Of a stretch of DNA of 64,000 nt, positions 2,734-63,989 are shown in pieces. Location of the stretch: assembly GCA_038198935.1 (NCBI GenBank), contig JBBPZQ010000127.1, forward strand, positions 824-64,823, in the 5' to 3' direction. Every line of letters starts with the position of its first letter. The first letter of the stretch is position 1. Made by a program: the position numbers and the translations under genes. The stretch comes from Anaerolineae bacterium. Lineage in GTDB: Bacteria > Chloroflexota > Anaerolineae > JACRMK01. The notes beneath the pieces were generated by a model. The model was not told the DNA's origin. It did no database searches and was given only the letters and a program-made list of their open reading frames with translations.

Positions 2734-3714
2734 ATGAAACGAGAACGAGTTTCCGACGACATCGTGGTGTTCACCAGCACCTTGTACGCGCAGGTGAATG
2801 CCGGTGCGGTGCTCACGCCGGCTGGCGCGGTGCTGATTGACACGCTGCCCTTCCCCGAAGAGACGCGCGAGATCATTGATTACTTGAAAAGCGAGGGGGC
2901 GCAAGGCGTTGTGCGTTACGTCATCAACACGCATCGGCACGGCGACCACACGCACGGCAATTTTCTGTTCCCGCACGCCGAGGTCATTGGCCATCACCTC
3001 TGCCGCGAGACGCTGCTGCGGTGGGGCAACGACAGTTTGCAAGCCGCGAAGGAAGCGACGCCTGAACTCGACGAAGTGCAGATGCGAGTGCCGAGCATTA
3101 CGTTCGAGCGCGAGATGTCGCTATACATGGGCGGCATGACGCTGGAGTTGCTCTACTTGCCGGGCCATAGCATTGATGGCATCGGCGTGCACATCCGCAG
3201 CGAGCGCGTGCTGTTTTCGGGCGACGCGATCATGCCGCTGCCTTCGTTCGTGTGGGGCGATCGCGAACAGTTGATGGATTCGATGCAGCGCGTCAAGGCG
3301 ATGGACTTGGAGCATATTGTACAAGGCCACGGCGACGTGTTGCTGCGCGGCGAAATGGGCGAAGTGATTGATGGTAGTCTCGCGTACCTCGACAGCATCT
3401 ATCAGAAGGTGAAAAAGCGCGTCGCGATGGGCGCGAGCGAGCGCGACCTGGAAAAGATCACAGTCGAGAAGTCCGGCGGCTCGCCGATTGCGATGGACGG
3501 TATGGGCAAAAAACTGCATCAGGCGAACTTGCTCAAGCTGTATCGCACATTCAAAGAGGAGCAGCGCGAGCCGCTACCGCACGAGACTGCCGAGCCGAGT
3601 GTGAAGAAGCCGCGTGCGCGCCGCAAGGCATCACGGGCTGAGACACAACCGACCAACGGCACGACGCGCAAGCGCAACCCGCGCAAGCGCGAGACGACGA
3701 CCACGCGCTCGTGA
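2734..3714 (+). CDS. MBL-fold metallo-hydrolase with Lys/Arg-rich C-terminal tail
   Basis: HRHGDHTHGN (HxHxDH) motif; track ORF 2680..3714, start refined to ATG giving MKRERV; possible -35 TTGACA upstream at about 2676. Confidence 0.8.
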   Translation: MKRERVSDDIVVFTSTLYAQVNAGAVLTPAGAVLIDTLPFPEETREIIDYLKSEGAQGVVRYVINTHRHGDHTHGNFLFPHAEVIGHHLCRETLLRWGNDSLQAAKEATPELDEVQMRVPSITFEREMSLYMGGMTLELLYLPGHSIDGIGVHIRSERVLFSGDAIMPLPSFVWGDREQLMDSMQRVKAMDLEHIVQGHGDVLLRGEMGEVIDGSLAYLDSIYQKVKKRVAMGASERDLEKITVEKSGGSPIAMDGMGKKLHQANLLKLYRTFKEEQREPLPHETAEPSVKKPRARRKASRAETQPTNGTTRKRNPRKRETTTTRS

Positions 3715-4123: not shown

Positions 4124-4858
4124 ATGACAGAATTACTCTACCAACTTGACGCATACCTAAAAGACTTCGACGCAACCGTGACTGAGGTCAACGCCGACGT
4201 GGTTGCGCTCGACCGCACGGCGTTCTATCCGGGTGGCGGCGGCCAGCCCCATGATTTCGGCACGCTCGAAGTGGATGGCCAAACGTGGCAAGTCGTGAAG
4301 GTGAAGAAAGAGGGCGACAAGGTGTGGCATACGCTCTCCCTCACGCCTACCTCTCTCCCACAGGGCGACGGGACACCAGCCGTCGGCGCGCGCGTGCATG
4401 GCGCGCTCGACTGGGAGCGGCGCTATAAGTTGATGCGCACACACTCCGCGCTGCACGTGCTGTGCGGCGTGGTGTGGCGCGACTACGGCGCGCAGGTGAC
4501 AGGCGGCAACATGGAACCGCTCGACGCGCGCATGGATTTTGAGTTCGAGCGAATGCAGAAAGAGTTGGTCAGCGAGATCGAGCGGCACGTGAACGAGGGG
4601 ATTCAGAAGGGCTACAACGTCTCGGCCAAGATACTGCCGCGCGAGGAAGCGTTCAAGATTCCCGACCTGATTCGCACGAAGATTAACCTGCTGCCGCCGG
4701 GCATTGCGGAAGTTCGCACGGTCAACATCGAAGGACTCGACCTGCAAGCCGATGGCGGCACGCACGTCGCCAACACGCGCGAGATTGGGCGCGTGAAGGT
4801 GGTCGGCTACGAGAGCAAGGGGAAGATTAACAAGCGTATTCGGATTCAGGTGGAGTAG
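4124..4858 (+). CDS. alaX: AlaX-type trans-editing protein (alanyl-tRNA synthetase editing-domain homolog)
   Basis: HSALHVL and CGxxxxH zinc-binding motifs typical of AlaRS/ThrRS second additional domain; track ORF 3962..4858, start refined to ATG giving MTELLYQ. Confidence 0.7.
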   Translation: MTELLYQLDAYLKDFDATVTEVNADVVALDRTAFYPGGGGQPHDFGTLEVDGQTWQVVKVKKEGDKVWHTLSLTPTSLPQGDGTPAVGARVHGALDWERRYKLMRTHSALHVLCGVVWRDYGAQVTGGNMEPLDARMDFEFERMQKELVSEIERHVNEGIQKGYNVSAKILPREEAFKIPDLIRTKINLLPPGIAEVRTVNIEGLDLQADGGTHVANTREIGRVKVVGYESKGKINKRIRIQVE

Positions 4859-5123
4859 TCAGTAGCCAGTAGCCAGTAATCAGACTCCTCAATCTGGCTA
4901 CTGACATCTGATTACTGTATGACATTGGCAAGGCGCACGGCGAGTTCTTCGGCGAGATTCGTCCTGCCACCAGCATGGTCGAAGTCAAACGCTTGATTGA
5001 CCCCGCGATGCTGGTCGAGATTGAGGCGGAGGCGGTGGTTGGTGCAACGGAGTGATTCGGCGGCTGATATAGAACGGATAAGCGAACACATATGCTGCCA
5101 ACGGTTTATCCGTTTCACCTCGG

Positions 5124-5678
5124 TTGTCAAAGACATCCGCCACTAGACAGGAAAAGACAGTGATGACTCGCAGCTTGCTAATACTGGGCACGCGCACGAT
5201 GTTCGTTGCGAACATCGTACTCGCCACTGTCGCGTTCGTTGTCATTTTGAATTGGTACGATACCGGAACGTTCGACAACGGTGGATTGACTTCAATTGGT
5301 GGACTGACTTCGATTGCGATTAGCGGCGTTTTGATCGGCATGCTTGCACTGGCGTTTGAGGAATGGGTTTCCAAAGCTCTCAACTGCTGGACAGGGCGCA
5401 GTTTTCTCAATTTCATGAGAATCATTGTTCAGAGTGTTATTTACATGGCTCTGGTTCTTGCGGTTGCAGCTAGCGCCAGTGCTGCATTCTACGAATTTAC
5501 ATCGGGAAGAGGCTTACTCACCAGCATCCTAATGTTCGTGCATCTTCCAGTACTTGTACTGTTTTATGCAATTCTCCTGATTCCATTTGGAATCGGTGTT
5601 GGTATCCTCAACGGACTTTTACTCCGGTGGAACCATCTTTTGCAGTTGGAAAACGCACGAAGCCAGAATCATAGTTGA
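5124..5678 (+). CDS. hypothetical polytopic membrane protein (atypically low GC)
   Basis: Four to five hydrophobic helices; AT-rich codon usage unlike neighbours; internal 18-nt tandem duplication (GGLTSIGGLTSI). Confidence 0.55.
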   Translation: MSKTSATRQEKTVMTRSLLILGTRTMFVANIVLATVAFVVILNWYDTGTFDNGGLTSIGGLTSIAISGVLIGMLALAFEEWVSKALNCWTGRSFLNFMRIIVQSVIYMALVLAVAASASAAFYEFTSGRGLLTSILMFVHLPVLVLFYAILLIPFGIGVGILNGLLLRWNHLLQLENARSQNHS

Positions 5679-5685
5679 GGTACAA

Positions 5686-8600
5686 ATGTTCAAACCCGTT
5701 TCATCTCAAGTGAAGTATCCAGAACTGGAAGAGCGTGTGTTGCAGTTCTGGAAGCAGAACGACACGTTCAAGAAGTCCATGCAGTTGCGTGAGCAGAACG
5801 AGCACTACGTCTTCTTCGAGGGGCCACCGACGGCGAACGGTCGCCCTGGTCTGCATCACGTGCTCGCGCGCGTGTTCAAAGACTTGATGCCGCGCTATCA
5901 CACGATGAAAGGCAAATACGTCCTGCGCAAGGGCGGCTGGGATACGCACGGCTTGCCCGTCGAACTGGAAGTTGAGAAGAAGATTGGCTCGCGCGGCAAG
6001 CAGGACATCGAGAAGTTCGGTATCGCCGAGTTTAATCGCTTGTGTCGGCAGTCGGTGTGGGAGTATGTGCAAGAGTGGGAGCGCATGACCGACCGCATCG
6101 GCTTCTGGGTGGACACGGAGCACGCCTACATCACTTACGACAACTCGTATATCGAGTCGGGCTGGTGGATACTCAGGTCACTTTGGGATCGCGCGCTGCT
6201 GTTCAAGAATTACAAGGTGACGATGCACTGCCCACGCTGCTCGACCACACTCTCCGATGCAGAGGTCGCGCTCGGCTATAAAGACAACGTCGAAGACCCG
6301 TCGGTGTGGGTGAAGTTTAAAGTAACGGACGGTCCGTTCGCGGGCGCATATCTGCTCGCGTGGACGACGACGCCGTGGACTCTGCCCGCGAACGTCGCGC
6401 TCGCGCTCAAGGGCGACGCCGACTATGCGCTCGTTCGAGTCGGCGACGAAAAGTATTTGCTCGCGCAGGCGCGCGTGAACGACGTGTTCGATACAGATGT
6501 ACGCCTGCTGCAGACGATGCGCGGCGCAGACCTTGTGGGCACGCGCTACGAAAATCTGTATTCGGCTGTGCCCGCCAAAGGCGAGACGCCCAACATGACC
6601 AACGCGTACACGGTCATCAGTGACGAGACAGTCACGCTCGAAGACGGCACGGGCATCGTGCACATCGCGCCCGCGTACGGAGACTTGGAAGTAGGACGGC
6701 GTCACCACCTGCCGACGCTCTTCTCGGTTGACCTGAGTGGTCACCTGATGCCTGAGTTCGGCGAGGAACTGGGCGGCAATAAGTGGTTCAAGGAAGCCGA
6801 CAAAGACATCGCGCGCAACTTGCGCAAGCGCGGACTGCTGCTCAAAGAATCGCGCGTGCATCACTCGTACCCGTTCTGCTGGCGCTGCGATTCGCCACTG
6901 CTCTATTATGCCAAATCGTCGTGGTACATCCGCACGACAGCGGTGAAAGATCGCCTGCTGGCCGCGAACGACGAAATCAATTGGTATCCGCCGCACATCC
7001 AGCATGGGCGCTTCGGCAACTGGCTAGAGAACAACGTGGACTGGGCGCTCTCGCGCGAGCGCTATTGGGGCACGCCGCTGCCCATCTGGCAGTGCGAGCA
7101 GTGCGGCGCGTATGCGTGTGTCGGCTCGGTGAAGGAATTGCGCGAGCGTGCGCTTAACGCCACCGACGTGAATTGGGATGAGATGGACTTGCACCGTCCG
7201 TGGATTGATGCGGTCAAACTGAAATGCGACGAGTGCGGCAATGTGATGGATCGCATGCCCGACGTGCTCGACTGCTGGTTCGATTCGGGCGCGATGCCGT
7301 ACGCGCAGTGGCACTACCCGTTCGAGAATCAAGATATGTTCGAGGATCAGTTCCCCGCAAACTTCATCTGCGAGGCGATTGACCAGACGCGCGGCTGGTT
7401 CTACTCGCTGCACGCGCTGGGCGTGTTGATGAAGGACACACCTGTTTACAAAAACGTGATGGTGCTCGGCCACCTTCAGGATACATCGGGCAAGAAGATG
7501 TCGAAGTCGCTCGGCAACGTGATTGACCCGTGGCACATCCTGAACACCTACGGCGCCGACCCGCTGCGTTGGTATCTGTATCGCACGACAGCGCTCGGCA
7601 ACCCGTATCGCTTCAACGAGCACACGCTCGCGCGTGAGGTTGTGTCCGGCGTGTTCAATACGCTGTGGAACACGTACTCTTTCTTCGTGATGTATGCGAA
7701 TATTGACGGGTGGAGTCCGAGCCAACCCCCACCCCAGCCCTCCCCCGTTTCACAGGGGAGGGAGCAGACGCGCACGGAGGACTCCCTTCTCCTGCGCAGC
7801 GGGGGAAGGGTCGGGGATGGGGGTTCGTCCGCACTCGACCGCTGGATTCTCTCCGAACTGCACACCCTCATCGCGGACGTGGATGACGACCTCGCGCAGT
7901 ACGAAATCACCGATGCGGTGCGGCGCGTGGAAGCGTTTGTCGAGGTCTTGTCGAATTGGTATGTGCGCCGCTCGCGCCGCCGCTTCTGGAAGACAACGAC
8001 GGATGCGGATAAGCGTTCTGCCTACGCGACGCTATACGAGTGCTTGGTCACGCTCGCAAAATTGATGGCACCATTCACGCCATTTGTGGCGGAGGAGATT
8101 TATCAGAACCTCGTGCGGAGCGTGGATACGAGCGCGCCTGAGTCGGTGCATCACGCCGACTTCCCGCGCGCCGACACGAGCAAGCTGGACGAGCAGTTGA
8201 TGACCAACACGCGGTTGGTGATGCGCCTCGCTTCGCTCGGACTTGCCGCGCGCAAGCAGGCGAACCTAAAGGTACGTCAGCCGCTCGCTGAAGCGCTGGT
8301 GGTCGTGCCCAGCGCCGACGAGCGCGGCGCGCTGCAAGCGCTCAGCGACCAACTGGCGGAAGAGTGGAACGTCAAGGTGGTGCGCGTCGCGGAATCGTCG
8401 AGTGATGTCGCAGATTTGAAGTTGAATCCATTGCCCGCGAAACTGGGCCCGAAGTTCGGCGCAAAGTTCGGCGCAGTACGGCGGGCGCTGCTCGCGCACG
8501 AAGACGACCACGCACTGAAGTTGCAGCAAGGCGAGCGTGTGCACGTGCAGTTGAACGGCGAGACTCACGAGGTCTTGCCCGAAGAGGTCGAGGTCAAACT

Positions 8601-8970
8601 CACGCCGAAGCAGGGCTGGGCGCTGACCAATGATACGCAGTACGTCGTCGCGCTCTCGACCACGCTGACGCCGTCGCTCAAGCGCGAGGGTGTCGCGCGC
8701 GAGTTGGTGCGCCAGTACAACGATTTGCGCAAGAGCGCGGGCTTCCGCGTCGAAGACCTCATGCGTGCGACATGGAACGGTAATGGAGAACTTGAACAAG
8801 TTTTCAGTGAGTTCGGCGACTACATCAAGCAGGAGACGCTTGCTACCGAACTCGTGCGCGCCGACGATGTGCCACAAGGCGTGACCAGTGGCACGCTCAA
8901 ACTCGACGAGGGTGAAGTGTTACTGAGCGTACGACCAGCGGGCGCAAGGGTGAAAGAGACACAACGCTAA
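5686..8970 (+). CDS. ileS: isoleucine--tRNA ligase
   Basis: Class I aaRS; HIGH-like PTANGRPGLHH, KMSKS, editing domain, zinc motifs; track ORF 5587..8970, start refined to MFKPVSS. Confidence 0.95.
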   Translation: MFKPVSSQVKYPELEERVLQFWKQNDTFKKSMQLREQNEHYVFFEGPPTANGRPGLHHVLARVFKDLMPRYHTMKGKYVLRKGGWDTHGLPVELEVEKKIGSRGKQDIEKFGIAEFNRLCRQSVWEYVQEWERMTDRIGFWVDTEHAYITYDNSYIESGWWILRSLWDRALLFKNYKVTMHCPRCSTTLSDAEVALGYKDNVEDPSVWVKFKVTDGPFAGAYLLAWTTTPWTLPANVALALKGDADYALVRVGDEKYLLAQARVNDVFDTDVRLLQTMRGADLVGTRYENLYSAVPAKGETPNMTNAYTVISDETVTLEDGTGIVHIAPAYGDLEVGRRHHLPTLFSVDLSGHLMPEFGEELGGNKWFKEADKDIARNLRKRGLLLKESRVHHSYPFCWRCDSPLLYYAKSSWYIRTTAVKDRLLAANDEINWYPPHIQHGRFGNWLENNVDWALSRERYWGTPLPIWQCEQCGAYACVGSVKELRERALNATDVNWDEMDLHRPWIDAVKLKCDECGNVMDRMPDVLDCWFDSGAMPYAQWHYPFENQDMFEDQFPANFICEAIDQTRGWFYSLHALGVLMKDTPVYKNVMVLGHLQDTSGKKMSKSLGNVIDPWHILNTYGADPLRWYLYRTTALGNPYRFNEHTLAREVVSGVFNTLWNTYSFFVMYANIDGWSPSQPPPQPSPVSQGREQTRTEDSLLLRSGGRVGDGGSSALDRWILSELHTLIADVDDDLAQYEITDAVRRVEAFVEVLSNWYVRRSRRRFWKTTTDADKRSAYATLYECLVTLAKLMAPFTPFVAEEIYQNLVRSVDTSAPESVHHADFPRADTSKLDEQLMTNTRLVMRLASLGLAARKQANLKVRQPLAEALVVVPSADERGALQALSDQLAEEWNVKVVRVAESSSDVADLKLNPLPAKLGPKFGAKFGAVRRALLAHEDDHALKLQQGERVHVQLNGETHEVLPEEVEVKLTPKQGWALTNDTQYVVALSTTLTPSLKREGVARELVRQYNDLRKSAGFRVEDLMRATWNGNGELEQVFSEFGDYIKQETLATELVRADDVPQGVTSGTLKLDEGEVLLSVRPAGARVKETQR
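7725..7826. repeat. GC-rich palindromic element inserted in frame within ileS (family copy A)
   Basis: cccccaccccagccctcccccg-tttcaca-ggggagggag ... cccttctcc-tgcgcag-cgggggaaggg-tcggggatggggg; nested inverted repeats; encodes SQPPPQPSPVSQGREQTRTEDSLLLRSGGRVGDGG. Confidence 0.7.
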
Positions 8971-17966: not shown

Positions 17967-18004
17967 ACGTAGAGACGTAGCGATGCTACGTCTCTACGTT
18001 TTTG
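17967..18004 (+). terminator. intrinsic terminator after kinase gene
   Basis: acgtagagacgtagc / gctacgtctctacgt hairpin followed by TTTT. Confidence 0.7.
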
Positions 18005-31140: not shown

Positions 31141-32145
31141 CTACAGCAGCGCACGTACTTTCGTGAAAGCGTCCAGTAGGCGGGTGCGCTCGTCAGGCGC
31201 CAACGACTCGCGTGAAAGTTTGCGCGCCTCGCTCCACAAACCGAGCCGAATGATCGCGCGAACGAGCGCGACATACTGGGGCGAATGAAACTTATGAAAG
31301 TAGCGCACGCGACTGCGCCACTTGGCAACGAACATCGCGTGGCGGAACTGGCGCGTGGCTTGCCCTTCGTGATGTACGATGCGCGCGCGCGGCTCGCACC
31401 AGATTTGCCAGCTAGCCCGTTTGATGCGCCGACACCAGTCCACTTCTTCGACGTACATGAAGTACGCCTCGTCCATCAAGCCGACCTGCTCAATCACGTC
31501 GCGCCTCGCGAGCATGCACGCGCCGAGTGGATGATCAATCTCGAACGGTGTGTTGCGTTGTGGGTAGCGTCCGTTCAGGCGCGAATTGATCAAGCGCCCA
31601 TGCAGCGGAAAAAAATCGAAAATGGTTTGCGCCAGGCCAGGGAAGCGAAACGCCGAATGCTGAAAGCGTCCATCCGCAAACGTCAATTGCGCGCCAACGA
31701 CGCCCGCGCGCGGGTGTGCTCGTATAAAGCGTAACAGCGTTACAACCGCATCGGGCTGCACTTCCGTGTCGGGATTGAGGAGCAGAATGTATTCGGGTAA
31801 TCCACCCTCACCCCGGCCCTCTCCCTGCAAGGGAGTGGGCCGGGGTGAGGGCTGCCCCCTAAACCCCAACTCCCGCAAAGCCACGTTGTTCGCTGCCGCG
31901 AATCCTCGATTACTGTCGAGCGCGATCACGCGCACACACGGAAACTCGTCACGCACCATCGCGGCACTGCCGTCGCTCGACGCATTGTCCACGACGATAG
32001 GTTGCGGCGCGACGCCCTCGCTTGCCAACAGCGCGCTTAGGCATCGGCGCAGCAACTCGCGCGTGTTATAGCTGACGATGATGACGGGAAGATGTTCTTG
32101 ACCGCCGCTTGCCGACTGCCGTCTGCCGTCCATCTCAGAACCCAA
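31141..32145 (-). CDS. family 2 glycosyltransferase carrying an in-frame palindromic element
   Basis: VIIVSYNTRELL...VVDNASSDGS; insertion encodes RGQPSPRPTPLQGEGRGEGGLPE. Confidence 0.8.
   Translation of the reverse strand: MGSEMDGRRQSASGGQEHLPVIIVSYNTRELLRRCLSALLASEGVAPQPIVVDNASSDGSAAMVRDEFPCVRVIALDSNRGFAAANNVALRELGFRGQPSPRPTPLQGEGRGEGGLPEYILLLNPDTEVQPDAVVTLLRFIRAHPRAGVVGAQLTFADGRFQHSAFRFPGLAQTIFDFFPLHGRLINSRLNGRYPQRNTPFEIDHPLGACMLARRDVIEQVGLMDEAYFMYVEEVDWCRRIKRASWQIWCEPRARIVHHEGQATRQFRHAMFVAKWRSRVRYFHKFHSPQYVALVRAIIRLGLWSEARKLSRESLAPDERTRLLDAFTKVRALL
31802..31870. repeat. GC-rich palindromic element, in frame within GT2 gene (family copy B)
   Basis: ccaccctcaccccggccc-tctccctgcaagggag-tgggccggggtgaggg, near-perfect palindrome. 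Confidence 0.7.
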
Positions 32146-33343: not shown

Positions 33344-33398
33344 CGAGATAATTTCAAAACAATCACACAAGGCAACCACCAAGACCCTAAGGCGCAAG

Positions 33399-33432
33399 GA
33401 CACAAAGAAGCATAGTTCTGAAACTTTGTGTC
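33399..33432 (-). terminator. hairpin downstream of GT-C gene
   Basis: gacacaaag - 16 nt - ctttgtgtc. Confidence 0.4.
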
Positions 33433-33578
33433 TCCGTGTCTTGGTGTCTTTGCGGATAAATCGTTCAGCCACTTTTAACACACGCTATGATGTCTTGATT
33501 GTGTGGACACAAAAATTTCTGGAGCATTCGCCCCAGAATCGCCGCGAGTCTAACAGAGGGGGTGCGCGTCGTCAAATG

Positions 33579-37963: not shown

Positions 37964-38035
37964 ATGAGTAGCCAGTCGTCAGTCGCCAGTGGCCCGACGG
38001 TTCTCATCTGACGACTGACGCCTGAGTACTGTTCT

Positions 38036-38844: not shown

Positions 38845-40746
38845 CTACGGCGTTACTCGCAGCGCGTCGCTGCCGTCTTCCAGTTTCAGCCGCTCGCCGC
38901 TGCGCGCATCGTACAGACCCACTTCAATTCGTGAGACATTGGCCTCAGACGCGAGGTAGTGAATGTCCTTCACGATCTCGCCTACCTCCCACTGCGTCGT
39001 CGGCATGAAGCCATTCGCAGGCGGGCTGTCGTGCTGGCCCACCAGCGTTCCGTTCGCAGCGAGCGCGTGCACGAACACAGTGTAGTTGGTGACGAGCGGC
39101 GTGCCTGCCTTCCACCACAACGTCACGCGCAGCGCGCGCGCGCCCCACGCGCGCTCCGTTGGCTGATAGGCTCCCTCGGCGTCGGCATCCGCAATCTCGT
39201 AACCGAGTAAGTGAATCGTCTGAGAAAATAGTTGATCGCGCATGTGCGCGATCACGGGCTCGTCCGTGTAGCGCAGCAACTTGTAGTCGCACGCATCGCC
39301 GATCAGTATATAGTCTGGTCGCGCGAGAAATTGGTTGAGTGCGTGCGGCACTTCGAGCGGACGGAACGGCGTCCAATTGTTGTGGCCGTCGCTCAGGTCA
39401 ACACGACCGTCGAGCACGACATACTCGGCCGTCGGCTCGCCCAGCGATGGAAACACATTTAGCGCGCGGCGATGCGCGAGGTGCGGCAGCAGATTGTCCT
39501 GCGCGCTGATGGATGCGTTCGGCGGCACGAGCGCCAGCACACGCTGCGCGCAAGCCCGGCGTGCGCTCACGTCGAAACGCATCGGCGCGAACTCGCGCGC
39601 GAAAGGACCAACACTCCACAACCAATACGACAAGCCGCCCAACAGCAGCAGCGCAACCGTCATCGCGCGTGCCAATTGGCGCGGGGCAGAGGCAATCGCC
39701 ATTGAAGTCGCGACGAATAGAATCGGCAGCAGTGGCGCGACATACCAAGCCTGCAACTGCGATACGCTCTGCTTATCGCTCAACAACAAATACGCGAAGA
39801 CGGGCAGCGCCACTGCGAATAAACTCGGCGCAAGCACCGGCAAGAACGCAAGCGGCAGCAGCACGCGCGCGACGGCGATAATCTTTGGCGCGGAGAGGTA
39901 GCGCGACACGAGCAGCAGCGGATCGGTGAGCAGACGCACGATACCTTGTGTTGGCGTTGGCGCGATGTCACCATAGCGATCCTGCCAATGCGAGATAGCA
40001 TCGGGCAGCATGCTCGGCAGTATGCCCCACACGAACACGAGCCATGCAACGGCGACGACGATCAGCAACATGCCCGCTCGCACAGCGTGCGGCTTGACTA
40101 CGAGCATGTACACGCCGACCGCCGCAACCACAATGGCGAGTTCTTCTTTGACGACGAGCGCCGCTAAAAGCAGAGCGAAGACGGAAGGCGAATGACGTAG
40201 GCGCGCTACGTCCGCCGTCCGCGGTCCGTCGTCGGTGGTTCGTCGCGCAAGCAACCACAGCGCGAACGCCATGAGCGGCGCGGCGAGCGCGATCTCGTGG
40301 AACTCACTCAGTGCGACGCCAAGCAGCGCAGGATTGAGATACAGTGCGAGCAGTGTGAACACGGCGAGGCGCGGATGACGCTCGCGCACAAGCAGGTAAC
40401 ATGGCACGACGCTCAGCGCGAGCGCGAGTGCCTGCGCAATCAGCAACATGCGCGGGTCCGACCACAAGCGGTAGAGTAGCGCGACGGCAATCAATGCGGG
40501 CGAGAAGTGATCGGCGAGGAAGATTTCGGGCTTGTCGGGCAGGTCGTTAACGAAGGGACGACCTTGAGAGGTGTTCCACACGACGTTATCGAAGTACGCC
40601 ATGTCGAAGGCGTGCGTGTGAAACGAGTCGTGCTGGCGCACCGCAAGCGCGGACGCGAACACGACATACGAGAGGAAGAGCACAACGGGTGCGATGCGCC
40701 ACGCGACGCCGAGTTGGCCCGCGCGCAGAGACGAATCGCGTCTCAC
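38845..40746 (-). CDS. DUF2079-like polytopic membrane protein with C-terminal beta-domain homologous to GT-C repeats
   Basis: HAFDMAYFDNVVWNTSQG N-terminal motif; at least 10 TM; C-terminal LRVTLWWKAGTPLVTNYTVFVHALA... matches repeat 3 of the 1008-aa protein. Confidence 0.6.
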   Translation of the reverse strand: MRRDSSLRAGQLGVAWRIAPVVLFLSYVVFASALAVRQHDSFHTHAFDMAYFDNVVWNTSQGRPFVNDLPDKPEIFLADHFSPALIAVALLYRLWSDPRMLLIAQALALALSVVPCYLLVRERHPRLAVFTLLALYLNPALLGVALSEFHEIALAAPLMAFALWLLARRTTDDGPRTADVARLRHSPSVFALLLAALVVKEELAIVVAAVGVYMLVVKPHAVRAGMLLIVVAVAWLVFVWGILPSMLPDAISHWQDRYGDIAPTPTQGIVRLLTDPLLLVSRYLSAPKIIAVARVLLPLAFLPVLAPSLFAVALPVFAYLLLSDKQSVSQLQAWYVAPLLPILFVATSMAIASAPRQLARAMTVALLLLGGLSYWLWSVGPFAREFAPMRFDVSARRACAQRVLALVPPNASISAQDNLLPHLAHRRALNVFPSLGEPTAEYVVLDGRVDLSDGHNNWTPFRPLEVPHALNQFLARPDYILIGDACDYKLLRYTDEPVIAHMRDQLFSQTIHLLGYEIADADAEGAYQPTERAWGARALRVTLWWKAGTPLVTNYTVFVHALAANGTLVGQHDSPPANGFMPTTQWEVGEIVKDIHYLASEANVSRIEVGLYDARSGERLKLEDGSDALRVTP

Positions 40747-43562
40747 TTCGCCTCGTCAGTTGGTTGAACTTGAATCCACTCGACCGCGCCCGCCACCGTC
40801 GGCGACGTGATGCGCTCGCCAATCGAGACGATGGCAGGACGGATGGGCGATGCATCTTCGCGGATGATGATGTTCTCGCCCGGCACCGTGATATAGCGAA
40901 CGAAGGCGTGGCTCGATCGCCAACCAACCGGTAGTTTGGAGCCTTCCGATTTCAATGCCATTGCCAATCTTAAGCTCGCACTCAGTGATGCCTCGTCGCG
41001 AACTGCCAACGCAACATTGTGGAACTTTTTATCGTGTTCCAGAAACTGCGCTAATCTGTCCGCTTCATTGGAAGACGCAAAGGTATCAAAATGATCTACA
41101 TAGTCCGCTGAGTTAATTCCTGTGATGAATGCGAGCAGATTGTATCCACGTTGATTCGGCGAGCGATCCTCTCCATCAATCCAGATATGAGCGAAATCGC
41201 CAACTTCTTCACCTGCACTTTTGACGACAACGAAACGATATGAATCAGGTTGACCGGTTTCACTTGGCAAATACCAAGTCGAGAACAGGGACGTCCATCG
41301 CAATGTCAACTCATTTAATCCCTCTGGCGTCCCTTGCATTTTAATCTGCACTCCATAATCCTTCGTGCCTTTCTGCAACGCAAACGAACCTGCCGGCCCA
41401 CCATTGACCAGTACGGTTAATTTCTGTCCTTCATCTGGCACGGTCACTCGCAGTGTGAGCACGACATCGGTATCCTGCTTCGGCATTAGCAGCCGCGTCT
41501 CATTGCGCTGCGCCCAAACGCGCTGCTCGCCCAACTCGCCCCAGCCGTCGGCGAAGTAAAGTCGCGCCATTGGCGACTTTGGATCAACCCCCACCCCTGC
41601 CCTTCCCCGCTGCGCAGGGGAGGGAGAGAGCCGATAGAGTCGCGTGCCGTCTGCATCGCGCCACAACTTGAGATCAGGCAGCACCGCTTCGAGCCACGGC
41701 TGCACTTTGCCACCGGCTTGCGCGCGCAGCACGATGTAGCGCACGTTGAAGAAGCGCATCACCTCGGGCGCGTACTGCTTGTCCTGCGCGAGCGTCGCCG
41801 CGTCGAGGTCGTGGCCCGTTTCGAGCGCGATGAGCGAATTGATGAGCGGCGCTTCGGTGAAGTATTGAAATTTCAATTCAGGGTTGCGGCTGGTGTTGCC
41901 GCTTAACATGCGCTTCTCGTGCACAGTCTGATAAAACTGGGACAGCATAAACACCTTGTCGAGCGTGCCCGTCACGCGGAAACTGTTGCGCCAGTCGAGC
42001 GGAATTTCGAGGACGGCGAAATCGCCGGGCTCATTGCGAATCTCGTCGTAGAACGACGGCGCGCGATAATCGGAGAGCGGCAAAACTGAAAAATGCTCAA
42101 CGAGTATTAGGAAGGAAATTAGGGAAGATAAAAGGAGATTAGGGGAAATCAATGCGTGCCCTTTATTTCTCTTATCTCCCCTAATCTCCCCTAATTTCCT
42201 CGCTTTCACGAGCAGATACTGAACACCGAACGCAACGAGCACCGCAACTCCGAGCGTGATCATCACCGAGTAGCGACTTGGATAGCGATTGCCTTTGAAA
42301 AATGGCAAGACTTGGAAGACGGCGAAGGGAAGCGGGATCGGAAACGCATTGCCATTCACTCGCAATTCGGGTCCGAGCGCGATGACGGCGAACGCGAGCG
42401 TCGTGACGCTCCAAAATTTCGCGAGCGTGTAGCGCCGATACACCCGCGCGCCGATGAGCGCAAGCGCCAGCGTCAGCCAGCCGACGAACACAAAGTTGAT
42501 GTAGGGAAACTCAAACCAAGTATCCAACCAGCCAACTATCGGATTCAACTTGCTCGGCACGAAGAAGCCAATCACGTCCGCTGAGAACGCATCTGCAAAG
42601 CCGGAGCCTTGCACGAGATAGTCGCCTTCGACGCGCAACTCTTGGATCATCGGCACGATGATCGGCGCGAAGCCGACGACGAATACGATGGCGACGAGCG
42701 CCAGCGCGAGCGTCATGCGCCAGAACGATTGCCGCGCACGCCAGTGCCACAGCCAGAAGAAAAATGTGAACACAATTAAAAACGAAGCGAAGGTGAATTC
42801 GGCATAGGCTTGCAGCAACAAGAACGTTGCGGCGAGGATGGCGTGACGAGCGGGGAGAAGCGAGTGGCGAGATGTCCTGTGCCGCAGGCATTCGCCTGCT
42901 TTGCGCGCAATTGCGCGCGGCACAGGATGCGCGAGTGGCGTGCGGTGAGTGGCGAACAAGTCAGAACGCAGCTTGAACAGGTACAGCACGTAGAATGGAA
43001 TCCACTGCGACGATGCTATGTTGAACTGGCCCAGCGAGGCATAGAGCATCTTGTTCGACGAGAAGGCAAACACAATGCCTGCGATAAACGCCGCCCAATC
43101 TCCAGTCTCCAGTCCCCAGTCCGCAATCCCTAACTCTTCAACCAACAGAAACATTCCATATCCGCACAACACAAACGACGACAACAACAGCATGTTCGCC
43201 GCAGGCACGAGCCCGAACACGGCTTGCAACGGGAGCGAGAGCGCGTCGTTCAGCAGCGTGAGCGTGTAGAAGACGAGGTTGATGCCAATCGGATAGAACA
43301 TGAAGTCGGTCGTGAGCGGCGAGGTGTGCAGATCGAGCAGCGCATGTTTGAACCACCACAAGTTCCATGTCAGCGCGGGGTCGTCGCTGCCATCGCCGAC
43401 GACGTGCGTCGTGAAATTCGCGGCGAGGGGCCAAGTCAGCACCAGTGCGAGCAGAGTATATGCGCCGAGCACGAGCAAATGTTTTCGCACGCAGCAGACT
43501 ATACCACAGAGACATATTTGGGCTAAACACTGTGCGCCAATTAGTGAACAAAGCACCGACAT
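40743..43562 (-). CDS. large polytopic membrane protein, probable glycosyltransferase/YfhO-like, carrying two in-frame palindromic insertions
   Basis: At least 12 TM N-terminal half, large C-terminal soluble domain; start overlaps downstream-gene stop. Confidence 0.55.
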   Translation of the reverse strand: MSVLCSLIGAQCLAQICLCGIVCCVRKHLLVLGAYTLLALVLTWPLAANFTTHVVGDGSDDPALTWNLWWFKHALLDLHTSPLTTDFMFYPIGINLVFYTLTLLNDALSLPLQAVFGLVPAANMLLLSSFVLCGYGMFLLVEELGIADWGLETGDWAAFIAGIVFAFSSNKMLYASLGQFNIASSQWIPFYVLYLFKLRSDLFATHRTPLAHPVPRAIARKAGECLRHRTSRHSLLPARHAILAATFLLLQAYAEFTFASFLIVFTFFFWLWHWRARQSFWRMTLALALVAIVFVVGFAPIIVPMIQELRVEGDYLVQGSGFADAFSADVIGFFVPSKLNPIVGWLDTWFEFPYINFVFVGWLTLALALIGARVYRRYTLAKFWSVTTLAFAVIALGPELRVNGNAFPIPLPFAVFQVLPFFKGNRYPSRYSVMITLGVAVLVAFGVQYLLVKARKLGEIRGDKRNKGHALISPNLLLSSLISFLILVEHFSVLPLSDYRAPSFYDEIRNEPGDFAVLEIPLDWRNSFRVTGTLDKVFMLSQFYQTVHEKRMLSGNTSRNPELKFQYFTEAPLINSLIALETGHDLDAATLAQDKQYAPEVMRFFNVRYIVLRAQAGGKVQPWLEAVLPDLKLWRDADGTRLYRLSPSPAQRGRAGVGVDPKSPMARLYFADGWGELGEQRVWAQRNETRLLMPKQDTDVVLTLRVTVPDEGQKLTVLVNGGPAGSFALQKGTKDYGVQIKMQGTPEGLNELTLRWTSLFSTWYLPSETGQPDSYRFVVVKSAGEEVGDFAHIWIDGEDRSPNQRGYNLLAFITGINSADYVDHFDTFASSNEADRLAQFLEHDKKFHNVALAVRDEASLSASLRLAMALKSEGSKLPVGWRSSHAFVRYITVPGENIIIREDASPIRPAIVSIGERITSPTVAGAVEWIQVQPTDEAK
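41587..41632. repeat. GC-rich palindromic element in frame (family copy C)
   Basis: cccccacccctgcccttccccgctgcgcaggggagggagagag; near-identical core to copy A; encodes SPSPAQRGRAGVGVDPKS on minus strand. Confidence 0.65.
42105..42207. repeat. second-type nested-palindrome element (cccctaatctcc / ggagattagggg units) in frame
   Basis: aggaaattaggg-aagataaaa-ggagattagggg ... cccctaatctcc-cccctaatttcct; AT-richer than host gene; encodes KARKLGEIRGDKRNKGHALISPNLLLSSLIS. Confidence 0.6.
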
Positions 43563-50197: not shown

Positions 50198-50261
50198 AGA
50201 CGGCGGACGGCAGACGACAGACCACCGTCAACCGTCCGCCGTCTCTCGTCCTCCATCAGCC

Positions 50262-52599: not shown

Positions 52600-55049
<2,450 letters not shown>

Positions 55050-58859: not shown

Positions 58860-60491
58860 ATGCGCTTTCTGATTGACCCACGCACTTACAATGAACTGCG
58901 TACACGCACCCAACATCCGCCCGATTGCTGCGTGCGCGCAGGCGAGTATCCGCACCATGTTTATCGCGACGGCATTAAGTTCGACGTCGCCGTTGCAATT
59001 GTGGACGGCATGCGCGAGGCGGAGGCGCGCAACGACAAGGAAGCCTTGCATCACTTAATGCTGCACAAAGTGCAATTGGATCGCGCGCTGCTCGACGCCA
59101 AGCAGAATGGAACGCTGAACGGCTCGCTGCTCGGCGATGCGCTGCCGACCGACGAGCCTCATCCAACATTGAGCAACTCATTTGTGCCGTCGCCGCCCGC
59201 CACTCTCGACGACACGGGGCTCAATCGCTCCTTCGCGTTCGAGATGATCCTGCGCACGATTTACTTTCGCGGCCGCCCGACGGGCGGCGACATCGCGCGT
59301 GCGCTCGGCTTGTCATATCGCGCGATCGGGCCACTGTTGCAGGAGATGCGGCAGAAAGAATTGGTGGACATCACGGGTCAAAAGGGGATGGGCGATATCG
59401 GCTACGAGTACATTCTCACGCCGCAGTTCGGAGTGCGTGCGGTGCAAGATGCACTGAAGAAAACCGAGTACGCGGGAGCCGCGCCCGTGCCGTTCAAGAC
59501 GTATGTCGAATCCATTACGGCACAGACGATCAAGAACGTCGTCGTCACGCGCCGCAATATCCGCGAGGCGTTCAGCGATTTGATCATCACCGATGCGGTG
59601 CTGAACGAGATTGGGCCCGCGATCAATTCTGCCTCATCCATTTTTCTATTCGGCTTTCCGGGCAATGGCAAGACGAGCATCGCGGAGCGCATCACGCGCC
59701 TGCTCGGCGATGATATTTACATTCCATACGCAGTCGAGGTTGAGGGCCAAATCATTAAGGTGTTCGACGGTGGCGTGCACGAACTCGCCGACGAATCATC
59801 GCTCAACCTGAAAGGCAACGGCTACCACACCGAGCTGCTGTACGATATGCGCTGGGTGCGCGTCAAGCGGCCCGTCGTCATCACGGGCGGCGAACTGACG
59901 CTGCCCAGCCTCGATCTGATTTACAACGAGCACGGACGCTTCTACGAAGCGCCGTTCCAGATGAAAGCGAACAGCGGCATTTTTATGATTGACGACTTCG
60001 GGCGGCAGCAGGTACGCCCAATGGATTTGCTCAATCGCTGGATCGTGCCACTCGAAAAACGCTACGACTACCTGACGACCGTGAGCGGCAAGAAACTCGA
60101 AGTGCCGTTCGATCAACTGCTCATCTTTTCGACCAATCTCGATCCGAATCAACTCGCGGACGAAGCGTTCCTGCGGCGCATCAAATACAAGATCGAGATT
60201 CGCGATCCTGATGAGGCACAGTGGCGCGAAATTTGGAAGCTGGTGTGCAAGGGACGCAAAGTCGAGTACGACGCGCGTGGCGTGGACTACATGATTGAGA
60301 AGTGGATGAAATCAGAGGGACGGCCATTCCGTATGTGTCAGCCGCGCGACATTCTCGACCAGATGATCAGCCTGGCCAGGTACAATATGGAACAGCCGAC
60401 GTTCTCACCGGATTTGATTGACGCAGCGTGTATGACCTACTTTGTGAGACGCGAGGCGAAGAACTTTGGGGCAAAAGTACGATTGGAGTAA
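58860..60491 (+). CDS. AAA+ ATPase with N-terminal winged-HTH-like segment, function unknown
   Basis: Walker A GFPGNGKTS, Walker B MIDDFG, sensor-1 STN; AGGAG-like RBS; ATG at 58860. Confidence 0.65.
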   Translation: MRFLIDPRTYNELRTRTQHPPDCCVRAGEYPHHVYRDGIKFDVAVAIVDGMREAEARNDKEALHHLMLHKVQLDRALLDAKQNGTLNGSLLGDALPTDEPHPTLSNSFVPSPPATLDDTGLNRSFAFEMILRTIYFRGRPTGGDIARALGLSYRAIGPLLQEMRQKELVDITGQKGMGDIGYEYILTPQFGVRAVQDALKKTEYAGAAPVPFKTYVESITAQTIKNVVVTRRNIREAFSDLIITDAVLNEIGPAINSASSIFLFGFPGNGKTSIAERITRLLGDDIYIPYAVEVEGQIIKVFDGGVHELADESSLNLKGNGYHTELLYDMRWVRVKRPVVITGGELTLPSLDLIYNEHGRFYEAPFQMKANSGIFMIDDFGRQQVRPMDLLNRWIVPLEKRYDYLTTVSGKKLEVPFDQLLIFSTNLDPNQLADEAFLRRIKYKIEIRDPDEAQWREIWKLVCKGRKVEYDARGVDYMIEKWMKSEGRPFRMCQPRDILDQMISLARYNMEQPTFSPDLIDAACMTYFVRREAKNFGAKVRLE

Positions 60492-60560
60492 TGCGTGATC
60501 CGTAATTGGTGCGCGATGGTTACGGATTACGGATCACGCATCCCGCATTACGAATCACGT
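60488..60560. repeat. REP-like intergenic palindromic repeat (copy 2)
   Basis: gtaatgcgtgatccgtaat ... ttacggatcacgcat ... cgcattacgaatcacg between convergent genes. Confidence 0.6.
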
Positions 60561-63916: not shown

Positions 63917-63989
63917 GGCCCGTTCGTCTAGTGGACTAGGACGCCGCCCTCTCAAGGCAGAAACGGGGATTCGAATTCCCCACGGGCCA
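63917..63989 (+). tRNA. tRNA-Glu (anticodon CUC)
   Basis: Cloverleaf: acceptor ggcccgt/acgggcc, T-arm gggga-ttcgaat-tcccc, anticodon loop cuCUCaa, 4-nt variable loop; close to canonical tRNA-Glu; no encoded CCA. Confidence 0.8.

Follow-up and report, generated by a model that had tools for sequence, protein, structure and literature searches.

The stretch of DNA analyzed here (the window) comprises 64,000 nucleotides (nt) of a contig from an Anaerolineae bacterium (JBBPZQ010000127.1) and carries on its minus strand a gene for a family 2 glycosyltransferase (GT2) that contains, in frame, a near-perfect palindrome of 47 nt. By its sequence, this palindrome is shown to be a copy of a known G/C-rich repeat family, which has been called first BoxC, then PIT element, and then TMECO (Holder et al. 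2015, PMC4666352). The gene and the features within it are as follows.

31141 to 32145, minus strand: open reading frame (ORF) of a family 2 glycosyltransferase with the GT-A fold, 334 amino acids from a TTG start (PF00535, Foldseek).
31792 to 31869, minus strand: codons for residues 93 to 118, the expanded loop between the helix at residues 82 to 92 and the strand at residues 119 to 123 (AlphaFold2 model, codon layout).
31805 to 31851, no strand assigned: two overlapping inverted TMECO units with one common central hairpin (arms, folding z score).
31817 to 31851, plus strand: TMECO unit of type B, CCCTCTCCC-tgcaa-GGGAGtGGG-CCG-GGGTGAGGG, with one stem mismatch (regular expression of the published pattern).
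31805 to 31839, minus (coding) strand: TMECO unit of type B, CCCaCTCCC-ttgca-GGGAGAGGG-CCG-GGGTGAGGG, with one stem mismatch (regular expression of the published pattern).

The database version of the host protein (P0001) has 330 amino acids and begins at an ATG at 32133. PF00535 matches the protein in two stretches, the first of which ends at residue 92, with 70.2 bits against a gathering cutoff of 23.3, and no NCBIfam equivalog that would assign a sugar specificity reached its cutoff. As a sequence search found no solved GT2 homologue at an E value of 1e-5 or lower, Foldseek was used instead, and it matched the structural model to the GT-A enzymes WrtF, GalNAc-T2, and TarP (E values of about 1e-13). 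Across 25 orthologues, including the window protein, 63 columns are invariant, all of which are kept in the window protein, and the acidic motif N124-P125-D126 is invariant in the same alignment. Judging from these sequence features, the host enzyme is most likely still active. If the gene were instead a decaying pseudogene, the insertion would simply not have been selected against; nothing direct speaks for this beyond the fact that the coding sequence contains a repeat, and it is scarcely credible in view of the intact, full-length reading frame, the retention of every family-invariant residue, the confidently predicted fold, the conserved operon context, and the presence of a similar insert in the essential isoleucyl-tRNA synthetase (IleRS) gene of the same window. 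At the 5' end of the GT2 gene (32100 to 32133), the N-terminal residues MDGRRQSASGG are encoded by GACGGCAGACGGCAGTCGGCAAGCGGCGG, which resembles a GACGGC-type repeat at 50198 to 50244; the gene start may also carry repeat-derived sequence, and the N termini of the orthologues are variable.

The palindrome has two arms of 22 nt each, at 31805 to 31826 (CCCTCACCCCGGCCCTCTCCCT) and 31830 to 31851 (AGGGAGTGGGCCGGGGTGAGGG), which are 95% complementary and are separated by a 3-nt loop; the junctions with the flanking sequence read GGGTAATCCA/CCCTCACC on one side and GGTGAGGG/CTGCCCCC on the other. That the palindrome is real and above chance was confirmed by its folding and its recurrence. Folding gave −29.3 kcal/mol for the DNA (z = −6.6) and −56.9 kcal/mol for the mRNA strand (z = −5.5), with none of 200 shuffled sequences equaling either value, and a 15-mer from one arm, with up to three mismatches, had five matches against 1.19 expected, a number reached in none of 100 shuffles. 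An earlier note, made from the sequence alone, had correctly described the near-perfect palindrome, with its inner arms (ctccct/agggag) and its outer arms, and the peptide that it quoted, PSPRPTPLQGEGRGEGGLPE, is the true minus-strand reading within the ORF. The range given there (31802 to 31870) overruns the palindrome and corresponds roughly to the whole loop-coding segment, and the element was not recognized as a member of a known repeat family, as which the regular-expression match identifies it.

For the family assignment we used the published TMECO definition, CCCTCNCCC-N3-6-GGGNGAGGG-N3-GGGNGAGGG, with at most one stem mismatch (PMC4666352). The pattern matched on both the plus and the minus strand of the palindrome with one mismatch each, and the reversed-sequence control gave 0 matches. 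The mismatched triplet contains the T of GGGAGtGGG, a single mismatch being permitted by the definition, and the first loop has 5 nt in both units. The second loop, which sets the TMECO subtype (TTA for type A and CCG for type B; PMC4666352), is CCG on both strands, so that both units are of type B. In a manual alignment, the window element (CCCTCTCCCTGCAAGGGAGTGGGCCGGGGTGAGGGC) and TMECO #1 of Escherichia coli K-12 (CCCTCTCCCTGTGGGAGAGGGCCGGGGTGAGGGC) were alike at about 32 of 34 positions. The strict pattern was found at one locus in the window, as the two overlapping units, besides two variant copies, A and C, that are described below; the palindrome in the GT2 gene is copy B.

The family has been characterized chiefly in E. 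coli (PMC4666352), where 23 copies are present in strain MG1655, "always located intergenically," and where between-strain variability is higher at TMECO-bearing loci. In vitro, a stable triplex is formed by the single strand in isolation but not by the duplex, and footprinting in vivo gave no triplex signal; earlier work cited there had found neither promoter nor terminator activity. No association with transposons, phages, or plasmids was found. The strict pattern was reported at 3610 occurrences in 262 proteobacterial genomes, related G/C-rich motifs were abundant in cyanobacteria, and the word "intragenic" does not occur in the text (PMC4666352). A G-quadruplex reading of the G-rich arm, in which GGGAGAGGGCCGGGGTGAGGG is a formal G4 motif, was considered and set aside, as nuclear magnetic resonance in the same study had excluded a quadruplex and led to the conclusion of a single-strand triplex. 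In our own search, of 5426 complete E. coli genomes, 4462 contained a match to a related query, with a median of 10 places per genome; 44810 of the places were chromosomal and 51 were on plasmids, and the best places listed had no annotated feature underneath. Bachellier et al., in the 1990s, and Hoyne and Maher, in 2000, are said to be earlier sources on the BoxC/PIT family.

The window element shares with the BoxC/PIT/TMECO family the three-block sequence, the type B CCG loop, the arrangement in inverted pairs, and the lack of terminator and promoter features. It differs from the described members in three respects: its two inverted units overlap around a common hairpin, whereas known pairs are separated by a spacer; the nearest named homologues of its genome are Chloroflexota, whereas the strict form had been reported only from the 262 proteobacterial genomes; and it lies in frame inside an enzyme, whereas the E. 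coli copies are always intergenic.

Within the ORF, the palindrome encodes P99 to G114 (PSPRPTPLQGEGRGEG), flanked, as the earlier note had also placed it, by conserved GT-A blocks, the NxGFAAANN helix on one side and the LLLNPDT strand on the other. The AlphaFold model of the protein has a mean predicted local distance difference test score (pLDDT) of 89.6 and a predicted template modeling score of 0.87, the exception being the coil at residues 93 to 118, where the mean pLDDT falls to 56 at residues 101 to 110 and to below 50 at residues 110 to 113. After the coil, strand 119 to 123 runs into the N124-P125-D126 motif. The model of the insertion-free relative P0005 has the same order of helix and strand, with a 12-residue loop in their place and a mean pLDDT of 92.6. 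The two models support the interpretation that the insert is a disordered stretch in a surface loop, and the composition of the encoded peptide (Pro, Ser, Gly, Arg, Glu, Thr, Leu, and Gln) is consistent with the predicted disorder. In GT-A enzymes, the strand that follows this loop has the acidic motif at its C-terminal end; the loop, which precedes the strand, would therefore lie on the far side from the nucleotide-sugar site.

The reading frame in which the element is used may be relevant to its persistence. By direct reading, the G-rich arm holds one TGA, which closes one of its three frames, and the C-rich arm is open in all three. The frame used reads the G-rich arm as GGT GAG GGT, avoiding the TGA, and the 5-nt central loop joins the PSPRP frame to the GEGRGEG frame. 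We infer that the segment is translated, in which case a tryptic peptide, GQPSPRPTPLQGEGR, is predicted to span the palindrome-encoded part.

Comparison with orthologues argues that the element was inserted. The nearest relatives of the host protein, at 66 to 69% identity, share the gene order PMT_2, Ig-like, GT2, second GT2, and S30AE, and because this order is conserved we regard them as positional orthologues. Between "...LGF" and "Y(V/I)L(L/F)LNPDT," P0005 has 9 codons and the window protein 23, which amounts to 42 nt gained. From 90 cross-phylum copies we built a profile (the TM profile), which had no matches in the orthologue contigs of about 35 kb and detected the three loci of the window, and an insert of the GEGRGEG type was found only in the window protein among 120 homologues. 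In these sequence comparisons, the palindrome is shown to be absent from the positional orthologues. The earlier note had proposed to align GT2 orthologues and to predict the structure, and had made its interpretation depend on the existence of insertion-free orthologues: such orthologues exist, the alignment reveals an insertion relative to them, and the models of the window protein and of P0005 agree on a surface loop.

The site itself is permissive. In the 100 of 120 homologues in which it could be delimited, the same loop has 6 to 62 residues, and in other lineages it holds unrelated repeat-like peptides (NQPTNQLTNQPTNQPT, RETWDMRRETWDVGRETWDV, and SSSNLQYPISNIH). Because of this range of lengths and these unrelated peptides, we consider the loop a permissive site and a general insertion sink, so that the tolerance seen here is owed to the site no less than to the element. 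Among the orthologues P0004, P0013, P0027, P0045, P0052, and P0106, the loop holds an NQPTNQPT tandem, an RETWDV tandem, SSSNLQYPISNIH, and NDQSLITH, as if repeat families of different kinds had repeatedly landed or expanded at this position. The inserts of P0002 and P0004 were examined as possible decayed copies of the same insertion and were rejected as such, since the TM profile did not match them and the similarity of their DNA by eye was about 12 of 20 positions. The hypervariability of the loop, which is often Pro-rich in relatives, and the loose similarity of the P0002 segment PTPSPKPERE could also be taken to mean that nothing was inserted and that a variable loop rich in Pro and Gly gave rise to the palindrome in situ, with hairpin-templated mutation as one conceivable route, the likeness of the palindrome to TMECO being convergent. 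We regard this origin as very improbable, since a 35-nt three-block match on both strands, with an exact CCG loop and GGGTGAGGG as the third block, goes far beyond what convergence would be expected to produce, the reversed-sequence control was empty, and the inserts of P0002 and P0004 are invisible to the TM profile.

Taken together, it is very probable that a passenger copy of the BoxC/PIT/TMECO repeat was inserted into a tolerant loop of the GT2 protein and was filtered by reading frame and by permissiveness of the site. The GT2 gene would have gained a TMECO copy on the branch that ends in this genome, and the point of entry would be the loop that separates the third helix from the strand bearing the NPD (DxD-type) motif. 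It could have persisted there as its net length keeps the reading frame, as the frame used avoids the single TGA of the G-rich arm, and as the encoded peptide, predicted to be disordered, lies in a loop that seems to tolerate almost any length. In the GT2 gene itself, the element is most likely a passenger, the insert would be neutral, and we infer that site permissiveness and frame act as the filter.

Several points weigh against this interpretation. The closest relative has 69% identity, so that the empty site is not reconstructable base by base, and the loop is so variable that the exact boundaries of the insertion are uncertain. The length of the palindrome, 47 nt, is not divisible by three, and the segment is 42 nt longer than in P0005. 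For a family reported as strictly intergenic in E. coli (PMC4666352), a copy in frame is atypical, and the copy count covers 64 kb of the genome. Translation and enzyme activity are predictions from sequence, and neutrality is an assumption, as a hairpin of −56.9 kcal/mol in the mRNA could affect expression.

This last point leads to the alternative that the palindrome has been kept for the structure of the nucleic acid, either as an mRNA hairpin that pauses ribosomes or blocks RNases and so tunes expression of the glycosyltransferase operon or as a DNA hairpin or triplex that promotes local recombination and variation. The great stability of the hairpin in both RNA and DNA, the 95% complementarity that the arms still retain, and the raised local variability at E. 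coli TMECO loci (PMC4666352) would fit such a role. However, orthologues in the same operon position have no palindrome, which disfavors a structural or regulatory role; no predicted terminator or promoter site overlaps the element; and Rfam returned for it only subthreshold, generic hairpin matches to eukaryotic miRNA precursor models and no family. In addition, the published tests found neither promoter or terminator activity nor a triplex signal in vivo, and purine-motif triplexes do not form in RNA (PMC4666352). We therefore judge retention for structure to be unlikely.

As to the arrival of the passenger copy, our best guess is that a copy elsewhere in the genome served as the template when a structure-prone site was repaired or replication was restarted there, rather than that a transposase acted by cut-and-paste. 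A classical nonautonomous transposon, such as a MITE (miniature inverted-repeat transposable element) or a relative of the repetitive extragenic palindromic (REP) elements, moved by a transposase encoded elsewhere, would account for a dispersed, multicopy sequence that is highly conserved in many phyla, for its presence or absence among orthologues, and for in-frame insertions like those of the Rickettsia palindromic elements (RPEs; PMC10969869). To look for target site duplications, we compared the 45-nt flanks of copies A, B, and C for their best 11-mer direct repeat against 400 random window positions, and none went beyond chance, the null fractions being 0.68 for copy A, 0.98 for copy B (7 of 11 positions), and 0.19 for copy C (9 of 11 positions); an "RLY...RLY" duplication noticed by eye around copy C is this last, nonsignificant case. 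Moreover, the hairpin takes up the entire element and there is no core framed by separate terminal inverted repeats, the places found in E. coli are overwhelmingly chromosomal, and the E. coli study reported no link to transposons, phages, or plasmids (PMC4666352). No transposase link was found for the window element, and no search for a partner gene was made. Transposition by a transposase encoded elsewhere is unlikely in our estimation, and the term "mobile" that the earlier note had applied to the palindrome is not borne out.

The element can also be compared with known small repeats. REP elements are mobilized by RAYT transposases. Like the window element, they are short, G+C-rich extragenic palindromes, often in inverted pairs, but one of their ends bears a GTAG or CGTC tag and they are lineage specific (Di Nocera et al. 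2013, PMC3733652), whereas no such tag abuts the palindrome and TM elements are nearly constant in sequence across phyla. ERIC/RU and other enterobacterial MITEs are likewise small intergenic repeats with occasional in-frame ORF fusions, but they belong to other sequence families, with terminal inverted repeats and in some cases target site duplications; BoxC is not mentioned in that work (Delihas 2007, PMC2759123). A further analogy is with the RPEs (Ogata et al. 2000, as summarized in PMC10969869), which are palindromic repeats that lie in frame in unrelated housekeeping genes at positions compatible with the fold. According to the same summary, RPEs are about 100 to 150 bp long, are confined to Rickettsia, and encode a conserved peptide module; the window element, in contrast, has 47 nt of unrelated sequence, occurs in many phyla, and encodes a short peptide of low complexity. 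What it shares with MITEs and RPEs is in-frame insertion into conserved proteins at sites where orthologues have none, as observed in the GT2 protein, in IleRS, and in 12 cross-phylum proteins.

The two variant copies in the window are also in frame, so that all three TM-like copies lie within reading frames.

7726 to 7830, plus strand: copy A, an inverted pair of TM-like units of a CCCCC/GGGGG variant, in frame in the IleRS gene at 5587 to 8970 (nhmmer E value of 3e-4).
41588 to 41626, plus strand: copy C, one TM-like half element with the sequence CCCCCACCCC-T-GCCCTTCCCC-loop-GGGGAGGGAG, lying in frame within the ORF of a 939-amino-acid membrane protein at 40743 to 43562 on the minus strand (weak nhmmer match, E value of 0.07).

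Copy A has the layout CCCCCACCCC-A-GCCCTCCCCC...GGGGAGGGAG, followed by a spacer and the inverted partner. It adds 34 IleRS residues that have no counterpart in the solved IleRS 8c8u, where they would fall between chain residues 665 and 672; compared with that structure, the extra residues (about 34) are placed between the catalytic body and the "LDRWILS" helix. The suggestion that copy B is the clearest case of a palindrome tolerated inside an enzyme accordingly holds in part: the GT2 enzyme looks intact, with the insert in a disordered surface loop, but copy A is equally clean in IleRS. Copy C is read as LSPSPAQRGRAGVGV in the membrane protein.

The genome appears to be rich in small intergenic palindromic repeats. 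Of the 11 non-TM palindromes in the window, 10 lie outside long ORFs. The remaining one, at 42134 to 42189 (GGAGATTAGGGGAAAT/ATCTCCCCTAATCTCC), is in frame in the same membrane protein ORF as copy C and is read GEIRGDKRNKGHALISPNLL. Several families of short palindromes, of the types AGTAGTCAGTAGCCAG, ATGCGTGATCCGTAAT, ACGTAGAGACGTAGC, and AGACGGCGGACGGCAGACG, are recurrent, at 4854 to 4916 and 37967 to 38030, at 53565 to 53623 and 60491 to 60541, at 17967 to 17999, at 50198 to 50244, and at 33376 to 33455, and none of them lies inside a long ORF. The sole Rfam match in the window above its gathering score is a tRNA gene at 63917 to 63989.

Beyond the window, a scan for the core motif CCCNCACCCCNGCCCTYYCCC in one genome per species yielded at least 120 stretches, and the matches listed came from groups only remotely related to one another, namely Pseudomonas, Enterobacteriaceae, Variovorax, Planctomycetota, Verrucomicrobiota, Acidobacteriota, Chloroflexota, cyanobacteria, and Deinococcus. 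Nearly all of those listed have the context CCCTCACCCC-N-GCCCTCTCCC-loop-GGGAGAGGG, and a locus in a Klebsiella metagenome-assembled genome (MAG; L053) carries the full palindrome in a form almost identical to that of the window. Strict TMECO loci were found in Akkermansia, Dehalococcoidia, Thermoanaerobaculia, Terriglobia, Planctomycetota, Omnitrophota, and a Bifidobacterium MAG, as well as in chromosome-level assemblies of Chloroflexota and Deinococcus; at least seven phyla besides proteobacteria are represented. Some of these loci may be affected by contaminated MAG bins, a caveat that does not apply to the complete chromosomes.

Recurrence of in-frame copies in other proteins and other phyla was observed directly. 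Coverage by stop-to-stop ORFs was rejected as a proxy for intragenic location, as it overestimates in G+C-rich DNA (63% of matches versus 88% of controls at 200 amino acids or more); instead, we adopted the criterion of at least 100 open codons on both sides of the element together with verification by Pfam. Among the cross-phylum matches listed, 30 ORFs had at least 100 open codons on each side. When 20 of these were tested against Pfam, 12 proved to be real proteins whose domains flank or span the element, and in 7 of the 12 the reading is GEG(R/W)GEG, as in the window. The 12 cases, out of about 110 evaluable matches, are a lower bound from a nonrandom sample. The verified proteins are as follows.

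ABC transporter: element between the transmembrane and ATPase domains.
IcmF-like mutase: in-frame element.
Lipoamide dehydrogenase: element in the lipoyl-E3 linker.
NAD-dependent DNA ligase: element inside the adenylation domain.
GlnE: in-frame element.
YgiQ-type radical-SAM protein: in-frame element.
PFL-like enzyme: in-frame element.
VgrG: in-frame element.
MetRS: in-frame element.
KsgA: in-frame element.
DEAD-box helicase: in-frame element.
HupE/UreJ: in-frame element.

Some copies lie in catalytic domains, so that the insertions are not confined to linkers. These are L045:3173-6157 (Planctomycetota), L103:55-1065, L075:232-2616, and L082:280-2766, the domains concerned being the adenylation domain of NAD-dependent DNA ligase, the KsgA rRNA dimethylase, the Radical_SAM_N domain of YgiQ, and the PFL-like domain; the Pfam matches of the ligase and KsgA are each broken into two parts, and those of YgiQ (400 residues against 301 profile positions) and PFL are stretched. 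In the MetRS ORF of a Variovorax MAG (L003:2-2161), which contains a TMECO-derived peptide, a DUF559 endonuclease-like domain lies between the catalytic and the C-terminal tRNA-binding domains, which may reflect either a genuine insertion of a domain or an inserted gene that is read through. In the literature that we searched, we found no report of translated BoxC/PIT/TMECO copies.

Considered alone, the locus adds one more copy to a repeat family that has been known since the 1990s, and Rickettsia already provides examples of in-frame palindromes within enzymes; in-frame copies across phyla, as a general pattern, are of more interest than the locus itself. A family described as strictly intergenic, and in its strict form as proteobacterial, is found here inside enzymes, including an essential aminoacyl-tRNA synthetase, and the near identity of 35-nt sequences in E. 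coli, Chloroflexota, Planctomycetota, and Deinococcus sharpens the old question of how the element spreads and is conserved. In-frame copies in conserved proteins represent datable insertion events with orthologous empty sites and could be used to study that spread. We consider it possible, although on balance still doubtful, that TMECO/BoxC is a repeat of many phyla that is copied by a widely conserved process and regularly translated, with about 1 in 10 copies outside E. coli lying in frame in conserved proteins (IleRS, MetRS, DNA ligase, KsgA, PFL-like enzymes, ABC transporters, and VgrG), usually in loops or linkers and usually read as GEG(R/W)GEG. If this were true, TMECO/BoxC would be to bacteria at large what the RPEs are to Rickettsia, and disordered linkers in proteins would repeatedly have originated from it.

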